DNA from: an uncultured delta proteobacterium
Lineage (GTDB): Bacteria > Desulfobacterota > WTBG01 > CAIYCZ01 > CAIRTM01
DNA length: 64,000 nt
Assembly (NCBI GenBank): GCA_963804955.1
Contig: CAWDSQ010000001.1
Coordinates: 17,879-81,878 of the forward strand
Direction of reading: 5' to 3'
Shown: positions 43,239 through 62,783 of the stretch, one piece after another
How positions within the stretch are numbered: the first letter of the stretch is position 1
Layout of the letters: each line of letters starts with the position of its first letter
The notes under the pieces: generated by a model
The model's database searches: none
What the model was told of the DNA's origin: nothing
What the model saw: the letters and a program-made list of their open reading frames with translations, nothing else
Position numbers and translations under genes: made by a program

Positions 43239-43386
43239 TTTAAAAAAGCAATTTCTGGATAGGCCCGTAGAGCAGGGGGTATTTCTTGACTTTTCGGGCT
43301 GTTTATATTCTATTCACATAATCCTGCTGCTATCAGCACATGCTTTAAGTAGCATGATTTTGTCCAATTGCCAATTACAGTGTTCT

Positions 43387-43808: not shown

Positions 43809-43811
43809 AAA

Positions 43812-43997: not shown

Positions 43998-44029
43998 ATT
44001 ATTGCTAAACTTTACAGACCGGGAGCTGT

Positions 44030-44758: not shown

Positions 44759-44759
44759 G

Positions 44760-46070: not shown

Positions 46071-47412
46071 AATTCAAACTCATCTACCCGCAATGGAAAA
46101 AGCTTGAACGGCAGACCGAATTTCATCTGCCGCCGCATGGCCCGGTTGTGTTTGCCGCAACGCTGCCGCCGCATGTGGAGGTGGAGTTTGTGGATGAAAA
46201 CGTGCAGGCCCTTGAGCTTGACGATGCCCCCGATTTTGTCGGCATTTCCATGATGCTCACCGCGCAGGTCAGGCGCGGCTGGCAGATTGCCGATCACTAT
46301 CGCAGCCGGGGCATCAAGGTCATCTGCGGCGGCATTGCCACCATGCTGCATGCGCAGGAAACGATGGAGCATGCCGATTCGGTATTTCTCGGAGAGGCCG
46401 AAGGCAGGATGGCCGGTGTCTGGATGATTTTAAAAACAACAGGCTCAAGCCCTGCTATGACTATATGACCGACTATCCTGCCGTGGAGCTCATCGGCCCG
46501 GCCCGCAGAAGCATTCTGCAGCGCGATCTCTACAATTACCGGGGCGTGCAGATGGTTGATCTCGTGCATGCCTCGCGCGGGTGCCGGTTCAACTGCTATC
46601 CCTGCTGCGTTAATTTTCTGGGCGGCCGGCAGTTCAGGCCCCGGCCCTATGATAAGGTTATAGAGGAGATGGCAGGCATCGACAATAACCGGCTTTTCAT
46701 CGTGGACAATTCTCTTGCGCAGAACAAGCAGTGGGAGCTGGGCCTGTTCCGGGAAATGGAGGGGCTGAAAAAAAAGTGGTGCTGCCATCCCATCGAAGAA
46801 GATGATGAGGTTCTGGAAGCCGCGGCCCGGGCAGGGGCCTGGTATGTGTATCAGGCCGTCTTTGACACTTCAGACCATATCAGCAACAGGATAAAGCGTT
46901 ATCACGACTATGGCATAGCCGTTGAGGGCACCATACTGCTTGGCCTTGACAATCACACCGAGGACTATATCAAGCGGCTCATCGATTTTTTGCTTGAGGT
47001 AGAGCTTGATATGGCGGAGTTTACCGTGCTGACACCGTTTCCGCACACGCAGGCATTTGATGATATGCACGGGCAGGGCCGCATCACGAGCTATGACTGG
47101 AATGATTACACCTGCGACAGGGTTGTGTTTCAGCCCCGGCACATACAAGCCGAGCGCCTGCAGGAGCTGTACTATTATGCCTGGGACATGTTCTACCGCG
47201 ACGAGCCGCAGAACTATAAGATGTTCAGCCTTTTCAAGAAAGTTGTAGAAAAGGAAAAGGCTGATGAGACTTTTATTCCCCGGCGGCGCGACCTTGCCGG
47301 CAGAGTGTTCGGCAGGAAGAATAGCAGGAGCAGACCGTGTGTCTGCCGTAGGGGCGCAGTGCCTGCGCCCAAAATAACGATACCGCAGGGGCAGACCAGC
47401 GTGTCTGCCTGA
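46067..47412 (+). pseudogene. Cobalamin-binding-domain radical SAM enzyme no. 2; one frameshift near 46425
   Basis: MKFKLIYPQWKKLE...DFVGISMMLTAQVRRGWQIADHYRSRGIKVICGGI...FLGEAEGRMAGVW, then DDFKNNRLKPCYDY...LVHASRGCRFNCYPC (Cys triad)...AEFTVLTPFPHTQ. Confidence 0.75.
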
Positions 47413-47423
47413 AGAGGCAATAC

Positions 47424-48980
47424 ATGACAAAAAAAAATAGTGTTATAGTCGGGCAGGGGCCGGTGTCCTGCGAGCAGATCGTGGCGGTTGCCCGCGGTCA
47501 GGCCCGGGTAAAGCTCAGCGCTCAAAAGACTTTCCTTGCACGCATGAACCGTTCGCAGGTCCATGCTGCAAAAAGCACTGAGAGAAGGCGTCGCGGTGTA
47601 TGGCGTCAACACAGGTTTCGGCAAAGCCTGCGGCAAGCGCATGCAGGCTGATGCAGCGCTGCAAAAAATCGCCAATCCCCTGCCGTTTCACGGCTGCGGC
47701 ACGGGCGAGCCCATCGGCATTGAAGAGACGCGGGCTGCCATGCTCTGCCGCATGCTCTGCCTTGCAACCGGCTACTCGGGCGTGTCCATCGGCCTGCTGC
47801 GGCAGCTTGAAGCATTTTTGAATCTTGGCATTACGCCTGTTGTGCCCTGCCAGGGATCGGTGGGCGCATCGGGCGATCTGACGCCCATGTCCTATATCGC
47901 TGCCTGCCTTGCCGGCGAGCGGGATGTTTTTTATACAGGCAGGCGCATGAGCGCACGGCAGGCCCTGAAAAAAACCGGCCTGACAACCCTATGTCTTTGA
48001 GCCGAAAGAGCCCCTTGCCATGGTCAACGGCACATCGACCATGACCGGCATTGCCGTCATGGCTGTGGAGCGCAGCCGCAGCTATTCTTCATGCCGCCGT
48101 GTGCGCCGCAGCCCTGACCGTGCATGCTTTCAGGGGCAAGTCGCATCACTTCCATCCTGTCATCAGCAAGGCAAAGCCTTTTGCCGGGCAGGACGCTGTG
48201 GCCCGAAGCCTGACCCTGCTTCTGCAGGCAAAGGGCTCTACGGCGCATCTCGAGGAAGACGGGCCCGAAGCGCTGCAGGATCCCTATTCCGTGCGCTGCA
48301 CGCCGCAGATCGCAGGCGTGCTGTCGGACGCGCTCGCCTGGATATCCCAATGGGTCGAGACCGAGGCCAACAGCTCAAACGACAATCCGATTTTTGATCC
48401 GGCCACAGGCGAGCCGCTTATGAGCGGCAATTTCTATGGCGGCCATATCGCTTTTGCCATGGACAGTCTGAAGGCTGCCCTGGCATCGGTTGCCGATATG
48501 GCTGACCGCCAGATCATGCTGCTGGTGAACCCGCAGCTCAGCCGGGGGCTGCCTGAAGATCTTGTGGGTGTAGCAGGACGCGAGCACTTTTTTCATCACG
48601 GGTTCAAGGCAATGTCGATAACAGCCTCTGCCCTTGCCGCCGAAGCGCTTAAATTGACCATGCCTGCGGCATCGTTTTCACGGTCCAGCGAATCGCATAA
48701 TCAGGACAAGGTGAGCATGGGCACCATCGCGGCCCGCGATGCCGAGCAGGTATGCACCATTGTTGAGCGCACAGTGGCCATCCACCTGCTTGCGGCAGCG
48801 CAGGCCTGTGATCTTCGGGGCCGGGTTGAGGCGCGGCCGCGGCTTGCAGCGCTTGTCAGAAGCATCAGGAAGCTTTCACCGCGCCTGGTGGCGGACCGGC
48901 CCCTTGACCGCGACATTGAGGCTGTTGCGCAGGCAATTGCCGACGGCAGCCTGTTTCTCAACCCTTACGAGGATACATGA
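47424..48980 (+). pseudogene. MIO-dependent aromatic/histidine ammonia-lyase (HAL/PAL/TAL family); three frameshifts (~47558, ~47985, ~48075)
   Basis: VYGVNTGFG...; GSVGASGDLTPMSY (the Ala-Ser-Gly MIO triad); MVNGTSTMTG; DPYSVRCTPQIAGV...NDNPIF...GNFYGGHIAFAMD...SESHNQDKVSMG. Confidence 0.8.
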
Positions 48981-48984
48981 CGCC

Positions 48985-49407
48985 ATGACCCGCGAGCATC
49001 ATGCAAGCTTTGAAATTGAGCGCAAGGTCGCCTTCTATGAGCTTGACCCCATGCAGATCGTGTGGCACGGCAACTACTATAAGTATTTTGAAGACGCCCG
49101 TTCGGGCCTGCTGCGCCAGGCGGGCATAGACCTGCACGACTTTTATGTAAAAAGCAATTGCGTTTTTCCCATCATCAAAACCGCCACCAAGCATATCTAT
49201 CCCCTGCGCTACGGCGATGAATTCATCTGCAGGGCCACTGTTGCCGAATGCAAAGAAAAGCTCGTTGTTGATTTCGAGATACGGCTCAAGGAGGGCGGCA
49301 GGGTCTGCGTTAAAGGCCGGACCGAGCAGGTGGCTGTGCAGATGCCCGAAGGCGAGATGCAGTTTGAGCTGCCTGCTGCAATCCGCTCTGCCCTGGGGAT
49401 GCTGTGA
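48985..49407 (+). CDS. 4-hydroxybenzoyl-CoA thioesterase (4HBT/YbgC) family acyl thioesterase
   Basis: FEIERKVAFYELDPMQIVWHGNYYKYFEDARSGLL..., a hot-dog thioesterase N-terminal motif. 140 aa from the ATG at 48985. Confidence 0.8.
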   Translation: MTREHHASFEIERKVAFYELDPMQIVWHGNYYKYFEDARSGLLRQAGIDLHDFYVKSNCVFPIIKTATKHIYPLRYGDEFICRATVAECKEKLVVDFEIRLKEGGRVCVKGRTEQVAVQMPEGEMQFELPAAIRSALGML

Positions 49408-51111
49408 CGGGGCCGCTTTTTCACGAAGCCCTTGCCTCGGGCGCTGAGCAGGTAGCGGTCTGGTCGCAGCTTCTGGACCGGATCAATGTCTTTCCCGTTG
49501 CCGATGGCGACACGGGCCGCAATCTTGTCATAAGCCTTGCCCCGCTGCGGCAGCAGGTGAGCAGCCCGGAAAAACTCTGCCGGAGCCTGCTGCTTGCCGC
49601 CCGCGGCAATTCCGGCAATATTGCAGCCCGTTTCCTGCAGGAGTTCGCGCTCTTGCCCTCGCTTAAGGATCTGGCGGCCACGGTGCAGCGAGGCCGTGAT
49701 ATGGCATACGGGGCTGTGAGCGAGCCCAAGCCCGGCACCATGCTCAGCCTTTTCGACAGGCTTGCCGATCTTTGCAGTGAAATCCCGGCAGACATGAATG
49801 CCGCGTGGACGGCCTGGCTTCTCTCCTCGCTTGAACATGCCGTTGCCGATACCGTGCACGGGCAGCAGGTTTTGCAGCAGGCCGGGGTGGTTGATGCCGG
49901 GGCCCTGGGCATGTATCTTTTTTTTGACGGTTTTTTCAGCCGGCTTGCCGGCACTGAGTATTTCTTCTCACCGGCCCGTGCCTGCTTTAAAGATAATCTT
50001 CGCATTGCCGACTCGTTCAGCCGGGAGACAACAGCCGGTTTCTGCATCGATGCCGTGGTGGAATCGGCAGGCAGCCTGCAATCAGCCCTGGGGAGCGATC
50101 CTGACAGCGCTCGTTGTCATGCGCAGCGGGGAGTATGTCAAGGTGCATCTCCATGCCCCTGATAGGGAAAAGGCAAAGTCGGATCTGGCAGCGCTGGGTA
50201 AAATTATTTCGTGGGCAGACGATGATCTGGCTAGCCAGACCGCGGTTTTTTCACGGCCCGCTGCAGCCTCAGCGGTCCATATCATGACCGATGCCGCAGG
50301 CTCCATTACCCGCGAAGATGCCGCAGCGCTCGGGCTTACCCTGCTTGACAGCTATATAAACATGGGCGATACAAGCCTGCCGGAGACCTGCTGTTCGCCT
50401 GCTGATATATATAAAGCCATGCGCGAAGGCTGCCGCTGCTCAACTGCGCAGGCTTCAATGGATGAGCGCTGCCAGCACTACCTGAGCGTGCTTGGACTCA
50501 ATAAAAACGTGCTCTATCTGTGCGTGGGCTCGGTATATACGGGCAATTATCAGGCCGCCTCCGGCTGGAAACAGAAGCATGATCACGATAGCCGTTTCAG
50601 CATTATAGATACGGGCACAGCTTCGGGCAGGCTTGCCGTGGCCGTGCATCTCACGGCGCGTTTCGCCCGGCAGGCGGCAGGGGCGGCCGAGGTTGAAGCT
50701 TTTGCGCGCAAGGCGCTTTCAAACTGTCATGAATATATATTTGTCGACACTTTGGGCTATCTTGCCGCCGGCGGCAGGCTTTCTAAAACCGGTGCCTTTT
50801 TCGGGGATATGCTAAAGTTTAAACCCGTCATCAGCCCGCAGCCTGACGGCGCGCAAAAGGTCGGCATGGTCAGAAACCGCGATGAGCAGGTGCGGTTTGC
50901 CCTTGAAAAGCTCTCAGAGGTTTTCACGCCTGAGGCAAAGGGCCTGATACTTCTTGAGTATACCGACAACCGCAGCTTTGTTGAGGAAACAGCCGCAACC
51001 GTGCAGCGCCGTTTCCCGAAGACAGAACTGCTTGTGCGGCCTTTGTCGCTCACAACAGGCGTGCATACGGGGCCGGGCACCTGGGCCGTGGCGTTTGCAG
51101 CGGAGGAATAA
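49404..51111 (+). pseudogene. Fusion of a Dak2/DhaL (FakA-like kinase) domain with a DegV (FakB-like fatty-acid-binding) domain; one frameshift near 50090
   Basis: N-terminal part: RINVFPVADGDTGRNLVISL...AARGNSGNIAARF (Dak2 motifs). C-terminal part: VHIMTDAAGSITREDAAALGLTLLDSYINMGDTS...YLCVGSVYTGNY...IIDTGTASG...LSLTTGVHTGPGTW (DegV). The GTG start overlaps the thioesterase stop. Confidence 0.75.
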
Positions 51112-51237
51112 AGAAGGAATTCAGTATCCAGTAGTCAGTAGCCAGAAGAAAAAATTTAAATCATTTCGGAGGCCAGATACATTTTTGGAATCTCAGTATC
51201 TTTTATTCTGAATTCTGGCTGCTGAATTCTGGCTTCC
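51112..51237. repeat. GAATTC-centred palindromic (MITE-like) intergenic element, copy 3
   Basis: The left end reads agaaggaattcagtatccagtagtcagtagccagaag. The right end carries ATTCTGAATTCTGGCTGCT (51205-51223) followed by gaattctggcttcc. Confidence 0.65.
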
Positions 51238-51277
51238 TTTTGAAGGACAAAATTGTTTACTGCCTGATTGTTAAAAT

Positions 51278-52002
51278 ATGCGCTGTGCCATTGTCATTCC
51301 CGTCTATAATCATGAAGCCACGGTCGCCGAAGTGGTGCGGCAAAGCCTCGCACTGGGCTATCCCGTAATTGTCGTTGATGACGGTTCAACAGACAGCACC
51401 TATGAACGGATCAGGGATATTCCGTGCCGTCACCATTCTGCGGCATGCGCAGAACCGGGGCAAGGGAGCAGCGCTGCTTACGGGGTTTGCTCGAAGCAGC
51501 AAAAAACGCCGACTGGGCTGCAACCCTGGATGCCGATGGCCAGCACCGGCCCGAAGACCTGCCGCTACTGCTTGCCGCGGTGCCTGAAGGCAAGCGGCCC
51601 ATCGTGGTGGGCCGGCGCGAGGGCATGCAGGCTGAGCATGTGCCCTGGGCAAGCAGGTTCGGCAGAAAATTTTCAAATTTCTGGGTGCAGGCATCGGGCG
51701 GCCCTGCCATTTCCGATACGCAGAGCGGCATGCGCCTCTACCCGCTGCCGGAAACGATTAACCTGCCGGTGCGGGCGCGCCGGTTTCAGTTCGAGGTTGA
51801 GGTCCTGGTAAAGGCGCGCTGGTACGGCGTGCCTGTGGTGGAAGCGCCTATTCATGTCTCCTATGCCCCGAAAGGCGAGCGCATTTCCCATTACCGTGGC
51901 TTTGTCGATTCCATGAGAAACTCGGCAGCATTTACGCGTCTTATTTTCGGGCGGTTTTTCTTTCTGCCTTTTATCCGCTTCAGGCGGAAGGCTTCATGGT
52001 GA
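51278..52002 (+). pseudogene. GT2 glycosyltransferase; two frameshifts (~51420, ~51485)
   Basis: MRCAIVIPVYNHEATVAEVV...VIVVDDGSTDST, then VTILRHAQNRGKGAALLTGF, then ADWAATLDADGQHRPEDL...SDTQSGMRLYP...FEVEVLV. Confidence 0.8.
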
Positions 52003-52006
52003 GGGT

Positions 52007-55000
52007 ATGAAGAAACGCTATGCTCTGCGCTGGTCACTGGCCGGGCTGATACTGCTTTCAGTCACAGGGTTTTTTATTGCAGGTATCTATCGCCTTCAGT
52101 TTTCAACCGATATGCTTGCAGCGCTGCCGCAGGATGATCCCGTGCTGGCAGATGCCCGCTATGTGCTCATGCACAATCCGGCACTGGAAAAAATTGTCAT
52201 CGACATAAGCCTTGCCCGTGAGGATATGGCGCTGCTGACCGAATGCGCTGCTTTTGTTGAAGCGCGGCTGCGGAAAAGCGGCCTTTTCAAACAGGTAGGC
52301 TTAGAGCATATGACCAAGCTCATGCCCGGTTTTTTGCAGTATGCCGCGGAGGGTCTGCCGGTGCTGTTCAGCGAGCGCGAGCTGACAGAAGAAGTGGCGC
52401 CCCTGCTGTCACCCGACAAGGTGCGCGCGGCGCTGGCTGCCCATCTTGCCGGTTTAAGCGGCCTTGAGGGTATCGGTCAGGCAGAGCTTATGGCGGGCGA
52501 CCCTTTGAACCTGCGAAATCTTGTGCTGAGCCGCATGGCCGGTTTAATTCCTGTCAAGAATGCCCGGTTCGTGAAGGGGCAGCTCATGTCAGGCGACGGC
52601 AGGCACCTGCTTATCATTGCCGAGCCCGCAGGCCCGGGCACTGATACGGCCTTTGCCCGCAGGCTTGATGCTTTGATGCAGCAGACCGCCGGTGAGGTTG
52701 AGGCCCGCTATGGCGCTGAAAATGCCGTGACGCTGACCCCGGTCGGCTCCTACCGAACGTCCCTTGACAATGAGGAGAATGCAAAGCGCACTGTGCAGCG
52801 GGCCACGCTCTTTTCAACCGTGGCCGTTGCACTGTTGCTGCTGTGCGCATTTCCCCGGCCTTTGATCGGGCTTCTGGCGCTGCTGCCCGCTTTTGCCGGA
52901 ACCATGTTTGCGGTTTTTGTCTATTCTCTTTTCAATACTTCCATCTCTCTTCTGGCTGTGGGTTTCGGCGGCGCCATCGTTTCATTTACCGTTGATTACG
53001 GCATTGCCTATCTGCTTTTTCTCGACCGTTGTCACGAGACCAAGGGCTTCGAAGCATCCCGCGAGGTCTGGTCCCTCGGTCTTATCGCCATGCTCACCAC
53101 TGCCGTCAGCTTTGCGGCTCTCAGTCTGAGCGGTTTCCCGGCCCTTGCCGAGATAGGGCTGTTCAGCGCCCTGGGCGTAGTTTTTACCTATATTTTCGTC
53201 CACGCCATATTCCCCCTCGTATTTGCCCGCATGCCTGCCGCAGGCCATGAGCCTTTCGTGCCTCTGCAGGCTTTTGTGAACATACTCGCTTCATCCCGCA
53301 CCAGCTGGAAAGCACCTGCAGCAATCGCCTTCGGCATCGCTATGCTTTTTTTTGCCCGGCCTGATTTTCATATTGATCTCACCGCGCTCAATGCAGCGAC
53401 CCCGCAAACACGTGCAGCGGAAAAGCTTGTGCAGCAGGTCTGGGGCGATGTTACCGGCAGCATGCAGCTCATGCTGGAGGCAGGCTCCAGGGATGAGCTT
53501 GCCCGCCGCGGCGACCGGGTATCTCGCATGCTGCAGGCCGAGATAGCCGGCGGCGCGGTGCAGCCCTGCTTCCTTCCTTCGTCGCTGCTTCCCGGGGCGG
53601 AGGTTCGCCGGGAAAATTTTGCCGCCTGGCAGCGCTTCTGGAGCACAGAGCGCATTGCCGGCCTTGAAGCAGCCGTCGGTGCGGCATCGCGCGATCTCGG
53701 GTTTGCTCCCGATGCTTTTGCGCCTTTTTTTGCCATGCTTGCCAGCCCCGCCATGCCGCAGGCTTCAATGCCCGATGAGCTTTGCGCTTTGCTTGGCATA
53801 GCACAGGATGCAGAGGCCGGCATCTGGCGGCAGGTGCTCACGCTTGCGCCCGGTTCATCATATGCCGCAGATGATTTCTACAGCCGCATTTCCGCTGACG
53901 CTGCAGCGCGGCTGTTTGACCCTGCTCTTTTCAGCCAGAGACTGGGGACGGTGCTCCTGTCGGGGTTTCTAAAAATGGCGCTCATTGTCGGCCTGGTAAC
54001 GGTACTGGTCGCGCTTTTATTTTTTATGGACTGGCAGCTTACCCTGCTTGGTATTGCGCCGACGGTGTTTGCCCTCATCTGCACACTGGGCACTCTTGAA
54101 ACTTATGGGCCAGCCTCTGGGCATCCCCACGCTCATGGTGGCTGTCGTGGTTATCGGCATGGGCACGGACTATGCGCTGTATTTAATCCGCGCCTATCAG
54201 CGCTATTGTGATGAAGCCAATGCCTCCCTCGGTCTTATCCGCCTGTCGGTTTTTCTCTCGTTTGCCACCACGCTGCTTGGCTTTGGCGTGCTTGCCGTGT
54301 GCGATAATCCCATGCTCAAAAGCGCCGGCCTCGGGCTTGCCCTTGGCATCGGCTATTCATTCATCGGCGCTGTCACCATTGTGCCGCCGGTATTAAAGCG
54401 GCTGTTTGCGCCTGCGCGTTTTCCTGACGAAACGGTTCAGGCCGGCTCGCGGCGGCACTTTCAGAGGTTTATCAGCCATTACCGGCATATGGAGTCATAC
54501 CCTCGGTTCTTTGCCCGCTTCAAGGTCCTGTGTGATCCCATGTTCCCCCGGCTTGCGGATTTTTTGCATGCACCGCGCACAGTCATTGATATCGGCACCG
54601 GCTATGGCGTGCCTGCGGTCTGGCTGCTTGAGCTGTTTCCGGATTTAAAAGTATATGGCATCGAGCCGGATGCACGAAGGGTGCGCTTTGCCAGCCGCGC
54701 CATTGGCGGGCGCGGGCTCGGTACAGGTGGGCCGGGCGCCTGATGTCCCCGATGCGCCAGGGCCTGCCGATGCAGCGCTGCTGCTTGATATGCTCCACTA
54801 TATAACCGATGATGAAGTGCGGCTCACGCTTTCGCGCCTGCGTGAAAAGCTGCGCCCCGGCGCACAGCTCATTGTGCGGGTAACCATTCCCCTGCATGAG
54901 CGCGCATCAGTGCTGCGCTTTGTTGAAACAACACGCCTGAAGATACTGGGCATTGCGTCGTATTTGCGCACGGCGCAGCAGGTGCGCGCACTTATTACGG

Positions 55001-55077
55001 ATGCGGGCTTTACCATCACCTGTGAAGAGCCAACTGCCCAGGGTAGTGAAATTATCTGGTTTATTGCTGAAAAATAA
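52007..55077 (+). pseudogene. MMPL/RND-superfamily lipid exporter fused in frame to a C-terminal class I SAM methyltransferase domain; two frameshifts (~54098, ~54710)
   Basis: There are about 12 TM spans with two large loops (52007-54400). Across the first frameshift the text reads ...ICTLGTL, then KLMGQPLGIPTLMVAVVVIGMGTDYALY. There is no stop before ...HYRHMESYPRFFARFKVLCDPMFPRL...VIDIGTGYGVPAVWLLELFPDLKVYGIEPD (SAM motif I) ...LLDMLHYITDDE...LRPGAQLIVRV. Confidence 0.7.
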
Positions 55078-55080
55078 AAG

Positions 55081-55260
55081 ATTCACCGCAGAGACGCAAA
55101 GAGCGCAAAGGGTTAATGCTTTTTGTTTTTCGCTGAGAGAGCAAAAAACAAAAAAAGTGCACTTTTCGGCAAATGAGGCGATGTCTTTCCCTTTGTGCCT
55201 TCTCAGCAAAAAAGGAAAGACATATCTTCACTCTGCGGCCTCCGCGCCTCTGCGGTGAAT
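55081..55260. repeat. MITE-like element with terminal inverted repeats
   Basis: ATTCACCGCAGAG (55081-55093) and CTCTGCGGTGAAT (55248-55260) form a perfect 13-nt TIR. Similarity extends to about 24 of 31 nt. An internal 10-bp hairpin ATGTCTTTCC/GGAAAGACAT is also present. Confidence 0.7.
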
Positions 55261-55283
55261 TTATGCGTAAGAAAATTTTTTGA

Positions 55284-55379
55284 GGTTGGGTTAAGCCCGG
55301 GAAATCCGTTGGGTTTCGTACCTCAATCCATACAGATAACGGTCTTATTAAAACCCATATTCTTAAGGGCGAACCCAAC
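55284..55379. repeat. Second palindromic intergenic element (GGTTGGGTTAAGCCC ... GGGCGAACCCAAC)
   Basis: Its ends are inverted repeats. The left-end 17-mer GGTTGGGTTAAGCCCGG is identical to 36813-36829. Confidence 0.6.
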
Positions 55380-55396
55380 AAATCAACGTATGAGAT

Positions 55397-56296
55397 TATG
55401 ACAGACCTTTTCTACCGCTGCCTGATGTTTGTCTCCGGCTTCACCGGCGCCTGGCTGTTTAAAGCCGGGGCCTGGTGGGTTGCAACGGGCTATTTCTTTC
55501 TGTTTCCGCAGCGGGTTCGGCACGAGCATCAATTTCTATAAAGCGCTTTTCCCTGTGCGCGGATTTTTCTATCATCTCTTCTGCGCCTGGCGTCAGTTTC
55601 ACAATTTCACCACGATCTTTCTCGACCGCTGGCTTGCCCGCAACCCGGGCAGCATCACCTTTTCGCAGGAGGGCCGGGAGCATATTGAAAAGATCGCATG
55701 TGACGGAACCGGCGGCATTATGCTCATGTCGCATCTTGGCAACTGGGAGCTTGGGGCGAGCTATCTTGGGAGCCGCACTGACGGGCCTGCCATAAAACTT
55801 CTTCTGTATCTGGGGGAAAAGCAGGGCGAGCAGATCGAGGGGCTGCAGAAAAAGGACCTTGCCCTGCAGGGCGTGAAGATCATCGCCACAAAGCAGGGCG
55901 AAGCCTCACCCTTTGACCTTGTGGAGGGAGTGCGCTTTATAAAAGAAGGCGGCTTTGTCTCCATGACCGGCGACCGCCTGTGGAGCGCTGCCCAGCGCTC
56001 GGTTGCAGTGAAGTTTTTAGGCCGCGAGGCCCGCATACCCGAGGCACCGTTTCAGTTTGCCCTGCTCTCAGGCGCACCGCTCATTATCTTTTTTGTGAAC
56101 CGCCTGGGCAACGGCAGATACCATTCCACGCTCTTCCCGCCGTATTGCGGTTGCGGCAGCATCCCGCAGCGAGCGCGCGGAAGCCATTCGCAAGGCTGCG
56201 CAGCAGTATGCCGATATCCTGGAGACCATGGTGCGGCGGTATCCCTTTGAGTGGTATCACTTCGAGCGGTTTATTGAGCCGGGGGGTAGTGAATAA
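55397..56296 (+). pseudogene. Lysophospholipid/lipid A-type acyltransferase (LpxL/HtrB family); frameshifts near 55518 and at 56147
   Basis: MTDLFYRCLMFVSGFTGAWLF...FLFPQRVR, then TSINFYKALFP...GGIMLMSHLGNWELG (H-x4-E/D acyltransferase motif)...FVSMTGDR...IPEAPFQFALLSGAPLIIFF. After an extra G at 56147 the correct frame reads VAAASRSERAEAIRKAAQQYADILETMVRRYPFEWYHFERFIEPGGSE*. Confidence 0.75.
56020..56278 (+). repeat. Direct repeat copy 1 (3' end of the acyltransferase gene)
   Basis: 56034-56278 aligns with 57857-58100. By hand alignment there are 9 substitutions and one 1-nt indel. Weaker similarity extends ~15 nt further upstream. Confidence 0.85.
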
Positions 56297-56329
56297 CGGC
56301 GCCCTTGAGTTTTTCCGTTTTTTGGGTTA

Positions 56330-56895
56330 GTGGCCTTCACATTTGATTTTGCAGGCCCCCTCACCCCAACCCTCTCCCACCAGAGGCTGTGTCACAATAC
56401 CGTTTTTGGTAGTCGCAAGCTTCAGCTTGCGTTTGTTGGCACATGGAATGTCAATACGTTACGCAGGCTGAAGCCTGCGGCTACCTCCACAATTATGCAC
56501 TGCGACACAGTCTCCCAGGGGAGAGGGAGCCAACAATTTTCCCCTCCCACCAGAGGCTGTGTCATAATTAGTTTTGTACTGTCATTTCGAATCCGCCGCA
56601 GGCGGTGAGAAATCTTAAGGCTTTGATTTTGCTTCAGGCAAAGATCTCTCCCTTTGGTCGAGATGACATCATTTTTTAATTGCGATACAATCTCTGAGAG
56701 GAGGGTGATCGCAACTGATAATTTTAAATGTGATGATCCACTAGTGAGCCTTCACATTTAAAAGCATCAGTTGCAGGCACTTTCCATCTAATACCCAATA
56801 CTTGTGAATTAAGGATTCCTTCTCTCCTTGAGGGGAGAAGGTCAGGATGAGGGGTGATATAAATCAAAGGTGAAACCCCTGTAGGTTTCAGGGGG
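56330..56895. repeat. ORF-free patch of stacked short palindromes and direct repeats
   Basis: An exact 21-nt direct repeat CTCCCACCAGAGGCTGTGTCA lies at 56374-56394 and 56544-56564. Hairpins include CGCAAGCT-tc-AGCTTGCG and CGCAGGCT-ga-AGCCTGCG, and GTCATTTCGAATCCGCCGCAGGCGG... / ...GGTCGAGATGAC type modules. GCCTTCACATTT occurs twice. Confidence 0.65.
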
Positions 56896-56930
56896 TTGAC
56901 AAAAATAGTGTAACCATATATAGTTACACT
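56896..56930 (+). promoter_or_regulatory. hicAB promoter with operator palindrome; predicts a leaderless or near-leaderless hicA mRNA
   Basis: TTGACA (56896-56901), a 17-nt spacer, then TATAGT (56919-56924). The ATG is at 56931, only 6 nt after the -10 box. A perfect inverted repeat AGTGTAAC (56907-56914) / GTTACACT (56923-56930) spans the -10 box. Confidence 0.55.
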
Positions 56931-57182
56931 ATGAGCATAGAAGAAAAACTGCTGGCAAAAATTCGCAATAATCCTGATGGCATATCATTTAAAGAGCTGT
57001 GTTCGGCCCTCGGACATTGCGGCTGGGTGCTCGATCATCAAACCGGAAGTCATTTAATATGGCATTCGCCCGCCGGGTTCAGATTGCCGTTGCAAAAGCG
57101 GCCCGACGGCAAGGCCAAGGGTTATCAGGTGAAGCAATTTATCGACCAGTACGCAAGGGAGACAGGTAATGAAAAAAAGTAG
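56931..57182 (+). CDS. hicA: HicA-family toxin (mRNA interferase)
   Basis: 83 aa: ...ISFKELCSALGHCGWVLDHQTGSHLIWHSPAGFRLPLQKRPDGKAKGYQVKQFI. It has the G-S-H core and basic C-terminus typical of HicA/YcfA. It overlaps hicB by 14 nt. Confidence 0.75.
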   Translation: MSIEEKLLAKIRNNPDGISFKELCSALGHCGWVLDHQTGSHLIWHSPAGFRLPLQKRPDGKAKGYQVKQFIDQYARETGNEKK

Positions 57183-57516
57183 ATTCGACGGCTACAGTGT
57201 AAACCTTTACCAGGATGAGGACGACGACTGGCTGGCGCATTTCATAGAGCTGCCCAATGTGTCAGCCTTTGCGGATTCCCCGGAAGGCGCATTGAAAGAG
57301 CTTGAAACGGCATGGGAAGGCGTCAAAAAAAGCTACCGCAAGCATGGTGAGCCTGTGCCTGTTGCGCCATCACGCAGAAAGTACAGTGGGCAGTTTAATG
57401 TACGGATCAACAAGACGCTGCATCGGGCTCTGGCTGTGGAGGCTGTACGTGAGGGCGTGAGCCTGAATGCACTGGTAGCGAAAAAGCTAGAGCTGGCTGC
57501 GATGACGCCGCGGTAA
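57169..57516 (+). CDS. hicB: HicB-family antitoxin with C-terminal ribbon-helix-helix
   Basis: YSVNLYQDEDDDWLAHFIELPNVSAFADSPEGALKELETAWEGV...YSGQFNVRINKTLHRALAVEAVREGVSLNALVAKKL. Confidence 0.8.
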   Translation: MKKSRFDGYSVNLYQDEDDDWLAHFIELPNVSAFADSPEGALKELETAWEGVKKSYRKHGEPVPVAPSRRKYSGQFNVRINKTLHRALAVEAVREGVSLNALVAKKLELAAMTPR

Positions 57517-57541
57517 TAACAGTCAGGCATACGCGGGGTAG

Positions 57542-57835
57542 GTGGAACCCAACACTACAGAATATATGAAAAAGAAAAAACCGGCACGAACCAGCCGTGA
57601 GTTCGATCAACGCTTTGATGATGGCGAAGATATTCACGATCTTCTGAACATGTCAAAGGCCGCCAACATCAATCATGGCAAAAAGGTCAGAATCACCCTT
57701 GATATGGCCGAATCGCTTGTCAAAGAGATTGACGAAATTCGGGCACGAATCGGCGTTGACCGTGGTGCCCTTATAAAGATATGGCTGTACGAAAAGATAC
57801 AGTCTGAAAAAGCCCTGAAGTCTGCCGGGTTGTAG
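57542..57835 (+). CDS. BrnA/CopG-like antitoxin-family protein (orphan; no BrnT-like partner seen)
   Basis: ...FDQRFDDGEDIHDLLNMSKAANINHGKKVRITLDMAESLVKEIDEIRARIGVDRGALIKIWLYEKI follows the BrnA pattern: D..EDI...LD.S.A, then V.VD.P..M...LD.EA.R.GV.R...IK.WL. The start is possibly the ATG at 57566. Confidence 0.6.
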   Translation: MEPNTTEYMKKKKPARTSREFDQRFDDGEDIHDLLNMSKAANINHGKKVRITLDMAESLVKEIDEIRARIGVDRGALIKIWLYEKIQSEKALKSAGL

Positions 57836-57845
57836 GGCCGGGAGG

Positions 57846-58124
57846 GTGGTGAGGATCATCCCCGAGGCACCGTTTCAGTTTGCCCTGCTCTCAGGCGCAC
57901 CGCTCATTATCTTTTTTGTGAACCGCCTGGGCAACGGCAGATACCATTCCACGCTCTTCCCGCCATATTCGGTTGCGGCAGCATCCCGCAGCGCGCGCGC
58001 GGAAGCCATCCGCCAGGCCGCGCAGCAGTATGCCGATATCCTGGAGACCATGGTGAGGCGGTATCCCTTTGAGTGGTATCACTTTGAGCGGCTTATTGAG
58101 GTAAGCGGCGGACATACTTCGTGA
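57846..58124 (+). pseudogene. Direct repeat copy 2: detached duplicate of the acyltransferase C-terminus (92-codon ORF)
   Basis: IPEAPFQFALLSGAPLIIFFVNRLGNGRYHSTLFPPYSVAAASRSARAEAIRQAAQQYADILETMVRRYPFEWYHFERLIE is nearly identical to the end of the 55397 gene. It lacks the catalytic N-terminal part. Confidence 0.8.
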
Positions 58125-58477
58125 ATCCACATCACGATCTGTCATGCCGCGCAAAAAAGTAAAAATTTTTTAACGCCAAAACAGGCACTTGAATTTTTTG
58201 TAGACAAGCACTGGCGCAAAATGTAGTTATCAAGAGAACAAAGAGGAACAGCGCTTTAATCTTAAAGTTCCCTAGCATATACCACCATTTTACCCGGCAC
58301 CGTTTGTTATGGTTTCCAGATTGAGGTTAAGGAAATCAGGTTTTTTAAAAAGGAACTGGTCTCATAAACTTGATTAGTGATTGAAAGCTTAGAGGGAAGA
58401 CAAAAGTCGGAAGGGGGAACTTCACGGCATACTCTCCTCAGGTCGTAGGGCAATTGTTGCTTTAAGGATAACAAAAC

Positions 58478-60403
58478 TTGCTGGGATTGGAGCAGTTTAG
58501 GCATGCAAATTTTTTTTACAGCCTTTTTTTTCTGTTTTTATTCTCGGCCTGCTGGCTCCTGGCCCACCGCATGTGGCGCCGAAATTTTTTGTTGTGTGGC
58601 CCCTTGGCGATGGGAATCCTTGTTGGCCTCCAATCCGTTTTGCTTAACCTTCTCTCTCCGTTCTGTGCCGTGTCCCAACTCTCGCTGTTGGGCGGCAACA
58701 TGCTTTTCATCATGGCCGTCATTTTTGCCGAGATCCGTCGCGTAGGAGCAAAAGGCGTGTTGCAGAAATACGGCGACCTTCTTAAATGCCAGGTGGATCT
58801 GTGGACCGGCCGGTCCAACCCATTAGCCTTGTTCGTTGCACCGCTTTTGATCATACTGCTTTGCACGGCCTTAGTGTATCCGCCCAACAACTTTGATAGT
58901 ATGACCTATCACATGGCCCGCGTCGTCTACTGGATCCAAAATGGTTCCGTGGCCTATTACCCAACACCGTATGACCCGCAGAATCTAATGAGTCCCGGCG
59001 CGGAGTACGTTATCCTGCTTTTGCAATTGCTTTCCGATACTGACGTCTTCGCCAATTTGGTTCAGTTTTTATCGTTTTATTTACTCATTTCGGCCATGCC
59101 ATCCTTTTTGCGTCTCCTTGGAATACGCAGACGCATCGCCAACTGGGGCCTCATTCTTGCCGCTACTCTGCCCATGGGCGTTTTACAAGCGACCAGCACT
59201 CAAACGGATCTAGTTGCAGCCTGTTTGGGCCTGGCCCTGTGTGCCGGGGCTCTGCGGCTATGGCATAAAACTTTGCGTGAGAAAAGGTCGAAGCTCGATA
59301 TCATGGCTCTGGCGCTCATGCTGGCAACGGGCTTTCTTGTTAAGCCGACATCGATCGTGGCGGCATTTCCCTTTCTGATAATGGCAGCCATGTGTTACGG
59401 AATGAACTTGATCCGCCGGCCGAAATTGTGGGGCAGGCAGGTCATAAATCTGCTGTTGGGAGTGCTTGTGGTCTCGGCCATCGCCGGACCTGATCTGTAT
59501 CGGAAAAAAGAGGCCTCTGGTTCGTTTACGGGGTCTCGTGGGGAGGCGTTTCCGTTGATTGGAGAATGGAAACAGAAAGTTTTGAACCCGGTGGAATGTA
59601 TTACATTCCATGTTATCCCCACGGAATGGTTTTATAAAAATATCGTAAAGCCGTTCGGCGGTTTCTTGAAATGCCCGACTTTTCCTCAACCTGCGCATAT
59701 GTTTCGTCTTCATGAAGATTTTGTTGGCAATTGTTTCCACATGATTTTTGCGGGGGTTGCAATTCTGCTGTTTTTATTCCGTTTTCCGTGGATTCCGCGT
59801 CCGGCAAGATGGAGTGTTTGTTTTGTGTGCGTCTCCTGGATTTTTCTGCACGTCACGGTTCGTTACCAGCCGTTTATTCCCCGCCTGGAAACGCCGGTTT
59901 TTATGCTGTTCCCCTGCTTTTTAGCCGCTTGGGCCCCAATCCCAAAAGTTCGACTGGTTCGTTTCTTTTTTGCGGCTATTTTAATCGTCAGCACCATGGC
60001 CTGTCTTTCTTACGGGATTATAGCGGCAGTCCGCAACGAAACTCGTCCTTTGAAATTGACCGACTTTTGGCTGCTTGACCGAGATTCTTCTTATTATGCG
60101 AACCTGACAGCTTGGAAGCCGAAGCATGATGCGGTCATTGAAGCGGTGCAACAAATGAAGGTTAAAAAGGTTGGCTTGCTAATCGGCCCGGATTATGATT
60201 ATCCTTTAACCTGGCGCCTATATCGCATAAGCGTTGAGGTGCGGCACGTAGCCGGATATTGGGATCTGGAGTGGGCAGATATAGTGTTTGCCCCTAAAAG
60301 CAGGCCGCCGGCGACAAAAGAGTGGCCAGTGTATAGGGGAAATTATTCAATACTGATTAACCCGCAATTCGAGAAAAAAGCATTGAAGGAAAATGCACCA
60401 TAA
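58478..60403 (+). CDS. Large polytopic membrane protein, probable GT-C fold glycosyltransferase
   Basis: 641-aa ORF with a TTG start (start uncertain) and more than 12 hydrophobic spans. The first periplasmic loop reads YPPNNFDSMTYHMARVVYWIQNGSVAYYPT, resembling the D-x-x-x-Y..A loop of ArnT/PMT-like enzymes. The C-terminal domain is soluble. Confidence 0.5.
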   Translation: MLGLEQFRHANFFYSLFFLFLFSACWLLAHRMWRRNFLLCGPLAMGILVGLQSVLLNLLSPFCAVSQLSLLGGNMLFIMAVIFAEIRRVGAKGVLQKYGDLLKCQVDLWTGRSNPLALFVAPLLIILLCTALVYPPNNFDSMTYHMARVVYWIQNGSVAYYPTPYDPQNLMSPGAEYVILLLQLLSDTDVFANLVQFLSFYLLISAMPSFLRLLGIRRRIANWGLILAATLPMGVLQATSTQTDLVAACLGLALCAGALRLWHKTLREKRSKLDIMALALMLATGFLVKPTSIVAAFPFLIMAAMCYGMNLIRRPKLWGRQVINLLLGVLVVSAIAGPDLYRKKEASGSFTGSRGEAFPLIGEWKQKVLNPVECITFHVIPTEWFYKNIVKPFGGFLKCPTFPQPAHMFRLHEDFVGNCFHMIFAGVAILLFLFRFPWIPRPARWSVCFVCVSWIFLHVTVRYQPFIPRLETPVFMLFPCFLAAWAPIPKVRLVRFFFAAILIVSTMACLSYGIIAAVRNETRPLKLTDFWLLDRDSSYYANLTAWKPKHDAVIEAVQQMKVKKVGLLIGPDYDYPLTWRLYRISVEVRHVAGYWDLEWADIVFAPKSRPPATKEWPVYRGNYSILINPQFEKKALKENAP

Positions 60404-61064
60404 AATCCAATAACGTCCGGCTGCGGCGGATGTGGTCAAAAAGCCTGCACGCAGAAGTTGTTTCTGAAAATGACGGTATGAGAATAAAATAGGGGGACAA
60501 ACAGTCCCAACGCCTTCGGCAACGGCAAAGAGATTGCAGAGCAGAAACCTTTCGTATCAGAACCGAAGACTGACATCTACTTCGTCAATGCTGCCATTTC
60601 TGTGAACTGGGGGGGAACCAGAACAGCAATAGGTTGCTGCAGCAGGTCAAGGCCACTCTCTGACGCCAAAACAGCCGCTTAAATTTCTTCAATATTCGTT
60701 AGGCTCAAACAGCCCCCGATTTTCATGGGTTCTTCCGGGAACACGCTGCGGGGTCAGGGAATGTCTGCCGGGGCAAAAAAAACAGTTTGGAGTCAAAAAT
60801 AAAATTGCTAATTGAGTTTTTTCAGGATATTAATTAAATAGTTGAATTGTTTCAGTTTCTAACCAAAAGCCATCAGGCAAGAACTGTTTATGAACGTGCA
60901 TAAGCTTGTTCACAACGGCCTGCTGTTTTTTATTTATTTGTAATCGGTTAATCGAAGGCAGGACCTTCAATTAACCGTTGGGATAAGCACACACCAAACC
61001 ATAATGTAATGCCACACACACCGGGAGGTACGTATGAGAGAGAGACAAATGCTTTCGTCTGCTT

Positions 61065-62783
61065 ATGACCGCAGTCATTTTTACTTGGTGCCTCAGCGGT
61101 TTGCTGATTACTACGCAGGCCCGGGCCACAACCGACCCATGGCTTTCATGGAGGCATGATCTGCAAAATACCGCAGCAGTGCCTGACCGGGGCTATCCGA
61201 TCAGCGCAAAACTGCTGTGGGACCGCCCCCGTGGCAATGAGGCCGCCACAACTATGCGCGCGCGCTGTTCGACACCCGTAGTTGTGGGCAACGATATCGT
61301 ATTTACAACAGGCAACGGAGGAGTTGTTGAAGCCCTCGATCAAAAAACCGGGGCGTTAATCTGGACAAAAACATATACCTGGATCCCCACACCACCCGAA
61401 CCAGAGGATGCGAAGCCGGACTGGTGCCAGGGTTCTACCCCCAATCTCGAGACCAACCTGGGCGTCTGCGCCAACATAAGCGGGGACTGCCCGGACTGGT
61501 GCTATGAGTGCAAGTCAACACCAAACGATTGCACAGCCACATCCTTAGTAAACCCGCTGCAGTTTCCTCCTACTGCCGGGGTTTTTGTTGCAGGCGCCAC
61601 CATTGATGCCGAAGGTGACCGTGTTTATTATGGAACCATGGATGGCAGGTTTATTGCTACGAAGCTATCTACTGGAGATCAGGTATGGGAAAAGCAGCCC
61701 TGGAAAGAGCCGGGCGGGCCAAACGAAGGCAGGAAATGGTATGATCAGAAATTTGCCTGGCATCTGTCTCCGCCGTCCGTATCCGATGGCAAGCTGTTCT
61801 TCGGGTCTTTTCTGCCGAGCTTTTACTGGGTGTTCAAGGCATTCCCGTTTATCCTCGATGCCAACGGCCACAGCATTCCCGGCTGGCCGTCATTTGAAAA
61901 AGACTACAAGATGTACTGGGTAGGCCGCGACGGCTTTACCTACGCTGCCGACAAAAACACCGGCGATATTCTGTGGACCTGGGACCCCGGCGGATGCGGT
62001 GTAACCAACATTCCCCCGGTTGCTGACGGCAAAGTATTTTTCAATGCTGATACCGTTATTGACTATCACTATGGCCAGATGGCGGCCTGTGATGTGAACA
62101 CCGGCGAAAAGCTCTGGCATGTGGGCCCGATCCCCCTGGCGCAGGGCGGCAACCCGTCCATTTCAGTGCCGCATAATACTATCTTTTATCCTGAAGGAGA
62201 TGGCGCAATATGGGCTGTAGACCTGACCACGGGCCAGGTCAAATGGACCTATCACGGCGGGTTCAGCGTCAAGGGCGCCACCGGCTGCGCCTCCTCTCTG
62301 GCAATTGATGAGCGCCGCGGCTGGGTGCTCGGGGCTTCCGATACGGGGCACATATTCGTGCTGTGTATGAAGACCGGCCGGTTGATCAGAGAAACGTATA
62401 TGGGCTTGCCGAACTGGAAGCCCAAAGACGGGCAGCCAAGAGACGGCTACTGGTTCCCCGGCGCCAGCGCCATGGCGATAGTTCCAGCCCAGGGGCTGCT
62501 CTACATAAGCGGCACCGACTTTGCTCAGGCATGGCAGGAGAGCGGCACCAAAGGCAGGGAAAAGCTTTTCTGCTTCAACTATGCTGCATGGGCTAACACC
62601 ATAAAGCAGGTCTGGGATTATCAGTTTATAGCCGACGATGGCAGCGAGCTTATCGTCAAGGGGCATTCTCCGTACCAGGTATCTTTCTACACCCTGGGCT
62701 CGGTTGCCCTGGCAGACGGCCATGTCTACTACGGTTCCTATAACGGACACGTCTACTGCTTTGGCAACGGTTTCAGGAACTAA
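61065..62783 (+). CDS. Secreted PQQ-like (BamB-type) beta-propeller repeat protein
   Basis: Signal peptide MTAVIFTWCLSGLLITTQARA. Repeated blades of the type GGVVEALDQKTGALIWTK, YYGTMDGRFIATKLSTGDQVWEK, AADKNTGDILWTW, ACDVNTGEKLWHV, AVDLTTGQVKWTY, VLCMKTGRLI and YYGSYNGHVYCF. Confidence 0.75.
   Translation: MTAVIFTWCLSGLLITTQARATTDPWLSWRHDLQNTAAVPDRGYPISAKLLWDRPRGNEAATTMRARCSTPVVVGNDIVFTTGNGGVVEALDQKTGALIWTKTYTWIPTPPEPEDAKPDWCQGSTPNLETNLGVCANISGDCPDWCYECKSTPNDCTATSLVNPLQFPPTAGVFVAGATIDAEGDRVYYGTMDGRFIATKLSTGDQVWEKQPWKEPGGPNEGRKWYDQKFAWHLSPPSVSDGKLFFGSFLPSFYWVFKAFPFILDANGHSIPGWPSFEKDYKMYWVGRDGFTYAADKNTGDILWTWDPGGCGVTNIPPVADGKVFFNADTVIDYHYGQMAACDVNTGEKLWHVGPIPLAQGGNPSISVPHNTIFYPEGDGAIWAVDLTTGQVKWTYHGGFSVKGATGCASSLAIDERRGWVLGASDTGHIFVLCMKTGRLIRETYMGLPNWKPKDGQPRDGYWFPGASAMAIVPAQGLLYISGTDFAQAWQESGTKGREKLFCFNYAAWANTIKQVWDYQFIADDGSELIVKGHSPYQVSFYTLGSVALADGHVYYGSYNGHVYCFGNGFRN

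Follow-up and report, generated by a model that had tools for sequence, protein, structure and literature searches.

Two copies of an acyltransferase gene end flank a hicAB-brnA islet in a delta proteobacterial genome

Restriction-modification units are said to have been found by Nobusato et al. in 2000 to undergo "insertion with long target duplication". Homology-facilitated illegitimate recombination and Campbell-type insertion-duplication were reportedly described by de Vries and Wackernagel in 2002 and by Prudhomme et al. in 2002, and the icd / e14 / icdC arrangement of Escherichia coli K-12 was reportedly described by Hill et al. in 1989. By genome comparison, Furuta, Abe and Kobayashi (2010) found insertions that lack mobility genes and are flanked by target duplications of 46-423 bp (PMC2853133). 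Linear DNA with one homologous end was found by Amarir-Bouhram et al. (2011) to circularize and integrate by single crossover, duplicating 109-950 bp (PMC3240628). Replacement of a gene end is the architecture of icd, e14 (and phage 21) and icdC in E. coli K-12 (PMC13626634).

The locus analyzed here shares traits with each of these systems. It lies within a window of 64 kb (the whole stretch of DNA that was analyzed) of a 4.26-Mb genome, and its features are as follows.

55398 to 56296, plus strand: LPLAT/LpxL-like acyltransferase gene (PF03279), the last gene of the lipid locus
56034 to 56278, plus strand: repeat copy A, the gene-attached 3' end, G003-like at informative sites
56279 to 56303, plus strand: A-type tail (PGGSE*), stop and 7 nt, delimited by the G003 and G004 BLAST end points and alignment
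56304 to 56930, no strand assigned: ORF-free patch of dispersed MITE-like repeats, containing the hicA promoter region
56931 to 57182, plus strand: hicA, type II toxin, 83 aa
57169 to 57516, plus strand: hicB, antitoxin, 115 aa
57566 to 57835, plus strand: orphan brnA antitoxin gene
57836 to 57856, no strand assigned: left junction of copy B, made up of brnA flank and a 10-nt filler
57857 to 58100, plus strand: repeat copy B, a detached 3' end lacking the 5' part, L048-like at 5 sites
58101 to 58202, plus strand: B-type tail (VSGGHTS*), stop and ∼78 nt of 3' flank, delimited by homology to L048
58478 to 60403, plus strand: GT-C/DUF2142-like membrane protein gene, 641 aa, the right-hand neighbor of copy B
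60440 to 60645, plus strand: 3' part of an IS30-family transposase gene, a relic that is frameshifted and cut off at 60645

Copies A (245 nt) and B (244 nt) form the largest direct repeat of the window. Their alignment comprises 234 matches, 10 substitutions and one 1-nt indel (95.9% identity), and the first 107 nt are identical save position 4. The first-pass annotation had given the same coordinates and the same indel; its count of 9 substitutions was one too low. Because the 244-bp repeat occurs exactly twice in the 4.26-Mb genome and is otherwise unique, it is far beyond chance. Matches to PF03279 and the translations bore out the earlier statements that both copies encode the last ∼80 residues of the Lip_A_acyltrans/LPLAT protein and that the detached copy has no N-terminal part.

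The proposal that an empty site be sought in relatives was answered by Logan contig L048. Its single copy aligns with the window to 56277 on the left flank and from 57857 to 58202 on the right, and can thus be taken as an empty site for the islet, with the right-flank match only ∼100 nt long and L048 itself ∼11% diverged. Measured against L048, the window carries a clean 1823-bp insertion together with a 244-bp target duplication. By the measures used in PMC2853133, the 1578-bp insert is below 20 kb, the 244-bp duplication is above 30 bp, no mobility genes are present, the repeat is otherwise unique, and a single copy aligns with both flanks (on the right for ∼100 nt only). As in the published insertions, a small (<20 kb) addiction-type module is present with no integrase or transposase, and the repeats, at 244 bp here and 46-423 bp in the published cases, far exceed the target duplications of transposons. 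The cargo here is hicAB, an orphan brnA and MITEs, not a restriction-modification unit, and the repeats are 4% diverged. Moreover, the first part of the insert is a different allele of the target gene's tail, and the opposite end of the insert neighbors the gene in a congener; the islet looks like a piece of a relative's chromosome and not like a foreign unit.

Once two single-base insertions (∼55518 and ∼56145, located by comparison with L048) are removed, the acyltransferase is 298 aa long and its translation ends ...FERFIEPGGSE*; congeners G003 and G004 have intact orthologues, also of 298 aa. The extra base in copy A gives TATTGCGG, compared with TAT-GCGG in all orthologues and TATT-CGG in copy B. 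Note that the genome is a long-read metagenome bin whose noisy assembly has ∼1 single-base indel per kb and contains broken essential genes: the locus carries ten 1-nt insertions in 7.5 kb relative to the intact short-read contig L048, and the ATP synthase genes atpA, atpG, atpH and atpF are also split by frameshifts. Due to these ten insertions and the broken atp genes, the frameshift in copy A is very probably an assembly error, and real pseudogenization of the acyltransferase is rejected on the same grounds. The frame-breaking base noticed in the first pass is therefore present but most likely does not mark gene decay, and frameshifts in long-read metagenome bins must not be taken as such.

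The spacer between the copies is 1578 bp long (56279-57856) and consists of the A-type tail and stop, the ORF-free patch, hicA, hicB and brnA. Profile matches agree with the earlier description of this spacer, except that the patch had been put at ∼570 bp and measures ∼630 bp. Within the patch are two MITE-like elements (56370-56527 and 56541-56705) with ∼27-nt terminal inverted repeats in common, and a 43-nt palindrome at 56700-56785. The MITE2 family has 52 matches genome-wide, 17 of them near full length, on 20 contigs, and the MITE families of the patch are also present in other genera. Both hicA (PF07927, 35.5 bits, cut-off 27) and hicB (PF05534, 51.7 bits, cut-off 21) scored above the Pfam gathering cut-offs. 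They have the gene order of HicAB systems, toxin first, with the same 14-nt overlap, and their activity is predicted from sequence. At the DNA level the pair is 67% identical to annotated hicAB on Nitrosococcus plasmids; these were the only matches when plasmids and phages were searched for the cassette, with none in phages. The brnA product (89 aa from ATG, or 97 aa from GTG at 57542) scored 76.3 bits against NCBIfam NF047399, above the equivalog cut-off of 60. Unlike in BrnTA systems, no BrnT ORF is adjacent and no BrnTA pair is formed. By tblastn, BrnT-like genes occur in this genome (G000) only on contigs C7, C26 and C29; G001 has an intact brnT-brnA pair that is 92% identical over brnA. 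Exact-protein look-ups of HicB and BrnA returned nothing on record. Judging from these matches, the islet is a mosaic of resident MITEs and a brnA that lost its brnT.

Beyond the repeats, the two gene ends resemble those of different relatives. Homology of copy A to single-copy genes runs to 56303 (90% for G003 and 85% for G004), by which copy A is an authentic gene end with the ordinary ancestral-type tail of single-copy genes in these congeners. The tail after copy B reads ...EVSGGHTS*. Copy B with its tail and flank is homologous to L048 over 57857-58202 (88.7%), where the acyltransferase (P0142) is intact, 291 aa long, ends ...FIDVRGGHTS* and has the same type of tail and flank; by this homology copy B is likewise an authentic gene end. 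The B flank from 58129 onward is also found on contig L041. The other 41 genomes of the class yielded no match to the B flank, and a pattern search of JGI metagenomes for the 58129 junction was equally negative. Two haplotypes can thus be described. Haplotype A has the gene end, a PGGSE-type tail and a variable toxin-antitoxin region ending with brnA, as in congeners such as G003. Haplotype B has the gene end, a VSGGHTS tail and its own 3' flank, as in L048, followed in this lineage and on L041 by the GT-C-like gene.

We consider it probable, with considerable reserve, that these two alternative haplotypes of the acyltransferase 3' end came to be stacked at the locus through two exchanges, one homologous and the other illegitimate. 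Overall it looks like ordinary recombination between strains and not like a new mobile element. In this process, a ∼1.8-kb piece of A-type chromosome, beginning where the 244-bp segment begins and ending shortly after brnA, would have entered a B-type gene by one homologous exchange inside the 244-bp segment, and an illegitimate joint would have connected the brnA flank to the segment start with the 10-nt filler. The route may have been single-crossover (Campbell-type) integration of a circularized fragment, or homology-facilitated illegitimate recombination. The homologous segment would thereby be duplicated around the insert, leaving the gene whole with an A-type end and the B-type end as a promoterless, decaying relic, and an integrase would not be required. 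Through RecA recombination between the copies, the islet could be lost and the gene regain a B tail, and selection by HicAB addiction would work against this loss. What we observe is the repeat, the two haplotypes with their comparators, the lack of mobility genes, and that the architecture did not turn up at the other loci examined; we infer that the recipient was B-type, how the DNA entered, and how excision and addiction would behave. If the reading is correct, the locus would be a natural example of a small addiction module entering a genome without a mobility enzyme or damage to the target gene. To a specialist this would be expected genome plasticity and not a new mechanism.

Campbell-type integration and homology-facilitated illegitimate recombination have the same pairing of one RecA-dependent homologous exchange, which we propose for the islet, with one illegitimate joint. 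In both cases a duplicated homologous segment (109-950 bp in the laboratory work) flanks the insert and short microhomology lies near the joint, for the islet only as a suggestive resemblance. The laboratory events were observed directly, whereas the one proposed here is reconstructed from a single natural genome and has a 10-nt filler at the joint. In common with icd/e14/icdC, the working gene has a substitute 3' segment as its end, the far side of the insert is occupied by a displaced 3' pseudogene with slight divergence, and loss of the insert rejoins the gene to its displaced end with the product still functional (for the islet, this would be the expected outcome). In contrast, the prophage e14 is 15 kb long, has an integrase of its own and uses a defined core site, whereas the islet is 1.6 kb long and has no recombinase, and the unit was found nowhere else in the genome or among the 160 homologous loci searched.

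At the left junction of copy B, 11 nt of brnA 3' flank common to G003 (to 57846) are followed by the filler TGGTGAGGAT. The junction sequence GGCCGGGAGG resembles GGCCGCGAGG at 56020-56029, 4 nt upstream of copy A; as a sign of microhomology this is suggestive only. A 10-nt filler rather than clean microhomology counts against stacking. In G003, the brnA 3' end with the same 11 nt is also found downstream of the single-copy acyltransferase gene, with no second repeat copy, and is followed by the atp operon. The A tail and the brnA flank, which form the two ends of the insert, are therefore both chromosomal neighbors of a single-copy gene in G003, and it is due to this placement of the brnA end that the "insert" looks like a piece of a relative's chromosome.

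Four-taxon comparisons over the 244 bp gave 6 sites at which A and B agree against G003 and L048, 5 at which A agrees with G003 and B with L048, and 0 with the opposite pairing (A with L048, B with G003). The 5 sites against 0, together with tails and flanks that match different relatives, support a donor and a recipient origin for the two copies. Copy B has 4 private changes and copy A has 0. Besides these and its 5 L048-like sites, copy B has 1 further difference (position 200), which is synonymous and was placed in neither group. The sites shared by B and L048 (4 synonymous, 1 non-synonymous) are as expected for alleles of a working gene; the B-private changes (1 synonymous, 3 non-synonymous) fit neutral decay and point to copy B being a decaying relic. 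Informative sites are few in number. The 95.9% identity between A and B exceeds that of either copy to G003 or L048 (86-91%), and the two copies have 6 private states in common, so that either a closely related donor and recipient or later gene conversion would be needed. In a sliding comparison of the upstream locus, G003, L031 and L048 were all 88-91% identical to the window, too distant to tell the donor lineage. We found no near strain (>98% identical) that carries just one of the two arrangements, A or B, and polarity and timing are what we infer for this reason. The error-prone assembly, the small number of informative sites and the mutual closeness of A and B also count against stacking.

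Among the other explanations, reverse polarity is unlikely. Here an A-type genome would have received a B-type fragment (B tail, flank, GT-C-like gene and IS30 relic) just past brnA, with the fragment start falling inside the acyltransferase by chance and the fragment anchored by homology further right or by IS30 activity. The linkage from acyltransferase to brnA is indeed common to G003, and the GT-C-like gene has lower GC and was not recovered from the order's other 20 genomes. On L041, which has a 95.8% identical copy of the gene, and on L042 it belongs to a travelling module whose right end is again 60645/60646, with the IS30 relic as a boundary. Under this polarity, however, the duplicated segment would not flank the inserted DNA and its 244-bp overlap would be a coincidence; G003 has the atp operon and no matching right flank behind its brnA fragment, and the comparison with L048 offers a simpler single-event picture. 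A decayed integrative or cis-mobilizable (CIME-like) element, as proposed in the first pass, would have integrated site-specifically into an attB in the gene 3' end and carried a substitute end, with its integrase lost or supplied in trans. The architecture matches icd / e14 / icdC (PMC13626634) in that the insert lies between direct repeats, one of which is the target gene's 3' end; L048 has the empty site, and each relative examined has different DNA downstream, possibly the sign of a hot spot. We nevertheless hold this to be very unlikely. The tail called a "substitute" is of the ancestral type and common among single-copy genes, the brnA of G003 lies behind a single-copy gene without a second att copy, and the islet itself combines resident MITEs with a brnA that lacks brnT. 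Moreover, no recombinase is present in the islet or close to it, in line with the first pass, which had noted that no integrase remains: between the repeats, protein-family matches were obtained for the ORFs hicA, hicB and brnA only, no tRNA or known RNA family was detected in 55000-61200, and the sole nearby mobility trace, the IS30 relic, lies outside the repeats. Neither a second gene end nor the same cargo was found at any of 80 metagenome loci or any of 80 genome loci; among these 160 homologous loci only the brnA fragment recurs, in G003. Elsewhere in the 4.26-Mb genome there is no second copy of the unit, cassette or repeat: hicAB and brnA are single-copy, and the suggested search for further copies next to integrases yielded no third repeat. 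The earlier model is borne out in its gene-attached end that keeps the gene whole, its displaced second end and the empty site; a recombinase-mobilized element is not supported.

A working mobile cassette that lacks an integrase is decidedly unlikely. Such a cassette would carry a copy of its target gene's end, spread between strains as naked or circularized DNA, enter by RecA without harm to the gene, be held by HicAB and leave via the 244-bp repeats; if so, the islet would be one instance of a general class. It is highly improbable that co-existing A-type and B-type strains were joined in assembly via a chimeric read or a wrong graph path. The assembly is noisy (about one single-base indel per kb, essential genes broken) and the two copies really are two haplotypes, but a strain switch normally occurs within shared sequence and gives one chimeric gene, not a joint between brnA flank and mid-gene with a 10-nt filler. 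Furthermore, the junction is 75 kb inside a 179-kb contig, 2 kb is easily spanned by long reads, and B has private changes such as a relic would be expected to show. Tandem duplication of the gene end and islet in situ, followed by deletion of the rest and decay of the relic, is scarcely credible. Although the copies are each other's closest relatives (95.9%) and all single-lineage changes are on B, the B tail with its ∼100 nt of flank is no random deletion joint but the way in which an intact gene natively ends in L048, and 5 of the 10 differences match L048 alleles where we estimate ∼0.5 would be expected by chance. This homology of B tail and flank to L048 contradicts duplication with deletion and, with the 5 L048-matching sites, agrees with the earlier view that the copies are not a simple recent tandem duplication. 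Identification of both parental haplotypes, which is rarely possible, rules out the simple form of that process.

The region downstream of the acyltransferase is different in every relative examined, with toxin-antitoxin, restriction-modification, Abi, HNH or tRNA genes behind the gene, and the end of the lipid-biosynthesis locus appears to be a recombination-prone boundary. Copy B and the GT-C-like gene were considered as a conserved pair and rejected, since homologues of that gene are mostly in polysaccharide loci and only one is in a lipid locus. A degenerate direct repeat flanking the GT-C module (58101-58200 versus 60565-60690) had a score of 42 and was not significant (shuffle mean 28, maximum 59). 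The transposase relic at the right end of this module was assigned to IS30 using the longer version on L041, which matched NCBIfam NF033563 with E = 1.4e-8 over profile positions 196-256 of 267.

The largest direct repeat of the window is formed by copy A, at the 3' end of an acyltransferase gene, and a detached copy B. Aligned, they give 234 matches, 10 substitutions (the first-pass annotation had counted nine) and one 1-nt indel, corresponding to 95.9% identity. As that annotation had described, both encode the last ~80 residues of the Lip_A_acyltrans/LPLAT protein, with 1578 bp between them. The locus runs as follows.

55398-56296, + strand: LpxL-like acyltransferase gene
56034-56278: copy A, gene-attached
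between the repeats: copy A tail and stop codon
between the repeats: ORF-free patch, a mosaic of dispersed MITE-like repeats
between the repeats: hicA, scoring above the Pfam cut-off
between the repeats: hicB, scoring above the Pfam cut-off
between the repeats: brnA, NCBIfam equivalog (76 bits versus a cut-off of 60)
57857-58100: copy B, detached

The ORF-free patch has no islet specificity: one of its MITE-like families has 52 matches on 20 contigs of this genome (G000), and other genera also carry the families.

Copy A is an ordinary gene end. The acyltransferase 3' end is single-copy in the congeners G003 (90% identical) and G004 (85%), whose homology with the window covers copy A, continues through the five-residue tail and its stop codon and ends at 56303. 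Most close homologues have tails like that of A in type and length (…FIEPGAGK, …PRAGK, …PGGGK and similar). About 1 kb 3' of the G003 gene lies a 3' fragment of brnA (corresponding to 57648-57846 of the window), so the acyltransferase-brnA linkage is common to G000 and G003, the latter without a second copy. Homology of G003 to the window ends 10 nt short of copy B. The atp operon is next after the fragment in G003 and lies on contig C16 in G000.

The extra base noted earlier in copy A is present (TATTGCGG versus TAT-GCGG in every orthologue); its reading as gene decay did not hold. Indels were counted against L048, a short-read Logan contig carrying the same lipid locus with every gene intact. 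Over 7.5 kb of coding sequence (within 48699-56277), the window has ten 1-nt insertions and no deletions relative to L048, two of them in the acyltransferase gene (~55518 and ~56145). Elsewhere in the genome atpA, atpG, atpH and atpF are frameshift-split (C16:42400-48000), and G003, the congener closest to G000, is itself a bin from a long-read metagenome and shows damage of the same kind. Without the extra base, the gene encodes a 298-aa protein ending ...FERFIEPGGSE*, as in orthologues. Given these insertions, the split atp genes and the corrected reading, the frameshift is probably technical in origin and the gene was treated as intact. Single-base indels occur at ~1 per kb in the assembly, and “pseudogene” calls anywhere in this genome require read support.

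Copy B, too, is an authentic gene end. One of 22 close homologues, P0142 (291 aa), encoded on L048, ends ...FIDVRGGHTS*, and the copy B tail is ...LIEVSGGHTS*. Copy B aligns with L048 over 57857-58202 (88.7%), past the tail and stop codon and ~78 nt into the 3' flank; the alignment of copy A ends at 56277. By these limits the window differs from L048 by a clean 1823-bp insertion with a 244-bp target duplication, and L048 supplies the empty site with a single 3' end that the annotation had proposed seeking. From 58129 on, the B flank recurs on another contig, L041, where a GT-C-like gene is joined to it (95.8% identical over 58129-60645). In the window, copy B forms a 92-aa ORF (57846-58124) with a GTG start 11 nt past the brnA stop codon and GGGAGGG just 5' of it. 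This ORF is probably non-functional, since the catalytic portion of the enzyme is missing from it and the changes private to copy B seem neutral.

Descent was assessed from four-taxon site patterns (A, B, G003 and L048) across the 244 bp. A and B agree against G003 and L048 at 6 sites, A and G003 against B and L048 at 5 (positions 109, 154, 158, 163 and 229), and A and L048 against B and G003 at none. Four sites are private to B and none to A. The five L048-like differences (four synonymous, one non-synonymous) look as expected for alleles of a working gene, and the four B-private changes (one synonymous, three non-synonymous) fit neutral decay; the tenth A/B difference (position 200, synonymous) is attributable to neither group. 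A and B thus appear to be alleles of different descent, B having decayed. Nine of the ten A/B differences fall within the last 137 nt. The first 107 nt are identical save position 4 and contain three of the six states exclusive to A and B, which fits either a crossover in this part or later gene conversion over it.

The simplest account, judged from sequence comparison, would start from a B-type recipient gene and a ~1.8-kb chromosome piece of an A-type relative, the two types being alternative haplotypes of the gene end (as in L048 and G003, respectively). One exchange would be homologous, inside the 244-bp segment; the other would be an illegitimate joint of the brnA flank to the segment start, where a 10-nt filler is found with a 9/10 microhomology nearby (GGCCG[G/C]GAGG). 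We infer the polarity of this event and the DNA entry route. The outcome would be as in E. coli experiments: a linear molecule homologous at one end forms a circle, a single crossover then inserts it, and 109-950 bp of the homologous segment end up duplicated; in the related HFIR route, microhomologies of 3-10 bp are used (PMC3240628). The islet would be a further case of a footprint already known from genome comparison, “insertion with long target duplication” (PMC2853133). Its architecture also mirrors icd / e14 / icdC of E. coli K-12, in which the gene is joined again to its displaced end once the insert is lost (PMC13626634); e14, however, is a prophage with its own integrase, unlike the islet, which has no recombinase gene. 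HicAB addiction may oppose RecA-mediated islet loss.

The same pair of haplotypes could have arisen with reverse polarity, a B-type fragment entering an A-type genome, which we consider unlikely; that they were brought together by a strain-mix artefact of assembly is very improbable. In-situ duplication followed by deletion is hardly credible: the copy B tail and flank match the end of an intact gene on L048, and five L048-like sites were observed versus ~0.5 (an estimate) expected for a B that arose in situ from A and then decayed. The annotation's argument against a recent tandem duplication is thereby upheld. Its attL/attR-like layout and the empty site also stand, but its integrative-element reading is not supported. 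At the islet locus, neither a recombinase gene nor a tRNA nor any known RNA family was found. The repeat occurs exactly twice in the genome (4.26 Mb, 36 contigs), with no second hicAB or brnA, and plasmid and phage collections gave nothing beyond distant hicAB relatives. Among loci encoding an acyltransferase homologue, neither a second 3'-end copy within 6 kb nor any islet cargo was found (0/80 metagenome, 0/80 species-representative genome loci). The brnT partner of brnA is lost here, the pair being intact in genome G001, and the islet itself is a mosaic of resident MITEs, hicAB and brnA without brnT. A decayed, site-specifically integrated element is therefore quite unlikely.

The acyltransferase gene is the final gene of an ~18-kb lipid locus (window 38052-56303; G000 C1:55930-74181) whose left and right flanks in G000 both differ from those in G003. 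The lipid block, or a larger unit containing it, has moved. In G003 the locus lies inside a ~40-kb segment (C37:180206-220474) between atpC and a 469-aa gene; these two are direct neighbours in G000 (C16:42151-42401). The DNA 3' of the acyltransferase gene is different in each relative examined.

DNA 3' of the acyltransferase gene in relatives
G003: DUF433
G004: restriction-modification genes and DUF433
contig L031: YjbQ
contig L032: HNH and Abi
contig L048: sugar-nucleotide genes
G018-like lineage: candidate tRNA gene

Right of copy B there are the GT-C-like gene and an IS30 transposase relic, and synteny with G003 returns only at ~60772. This end of the locus is a recombination-prone boundary.

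The GT-C-like gene (58478-60403) encodes a 641-aa GT-C/DUF2142-like membrane protein, and has a 95.8% identical copy on a Logan contig; a search of the order's other 20 genomes did not find it. A 71% identical homologue makes up the C-terminal region of a 1052-aa protein in a B12-radical-SAM lipid locus (MAG GCA_043805145.1). Compared between the window, L041, L042 and L043, the GT-C module keeps one right end (60645/60646) in three contexts, L041 and L042 among them. The IS30-family relic (60440-60645), a frameshifted transposase C-terminal part, is cut at 60645; the L041 version runs on. tRNA genes are classical integration targets, and in the more distant G018-like lineage (L055, L057 and G018/L023) a candidate tRNA 3' end lies <~30 nt past the acyltransferase gene on the opposite strand. 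The sugar-nucleotide genes lie immediately 3' of the lipid locus on L048 (7967-13497; window 19896-27050) and ~11 kb 5' of it in G000, apparently a further rearrangement around the lipid block. An 87-nt direct repeat, 80% identical (19085-19171 / 28354-28440), encloses this region in the window and probably lies inside two paralogous membrane-protein genes.
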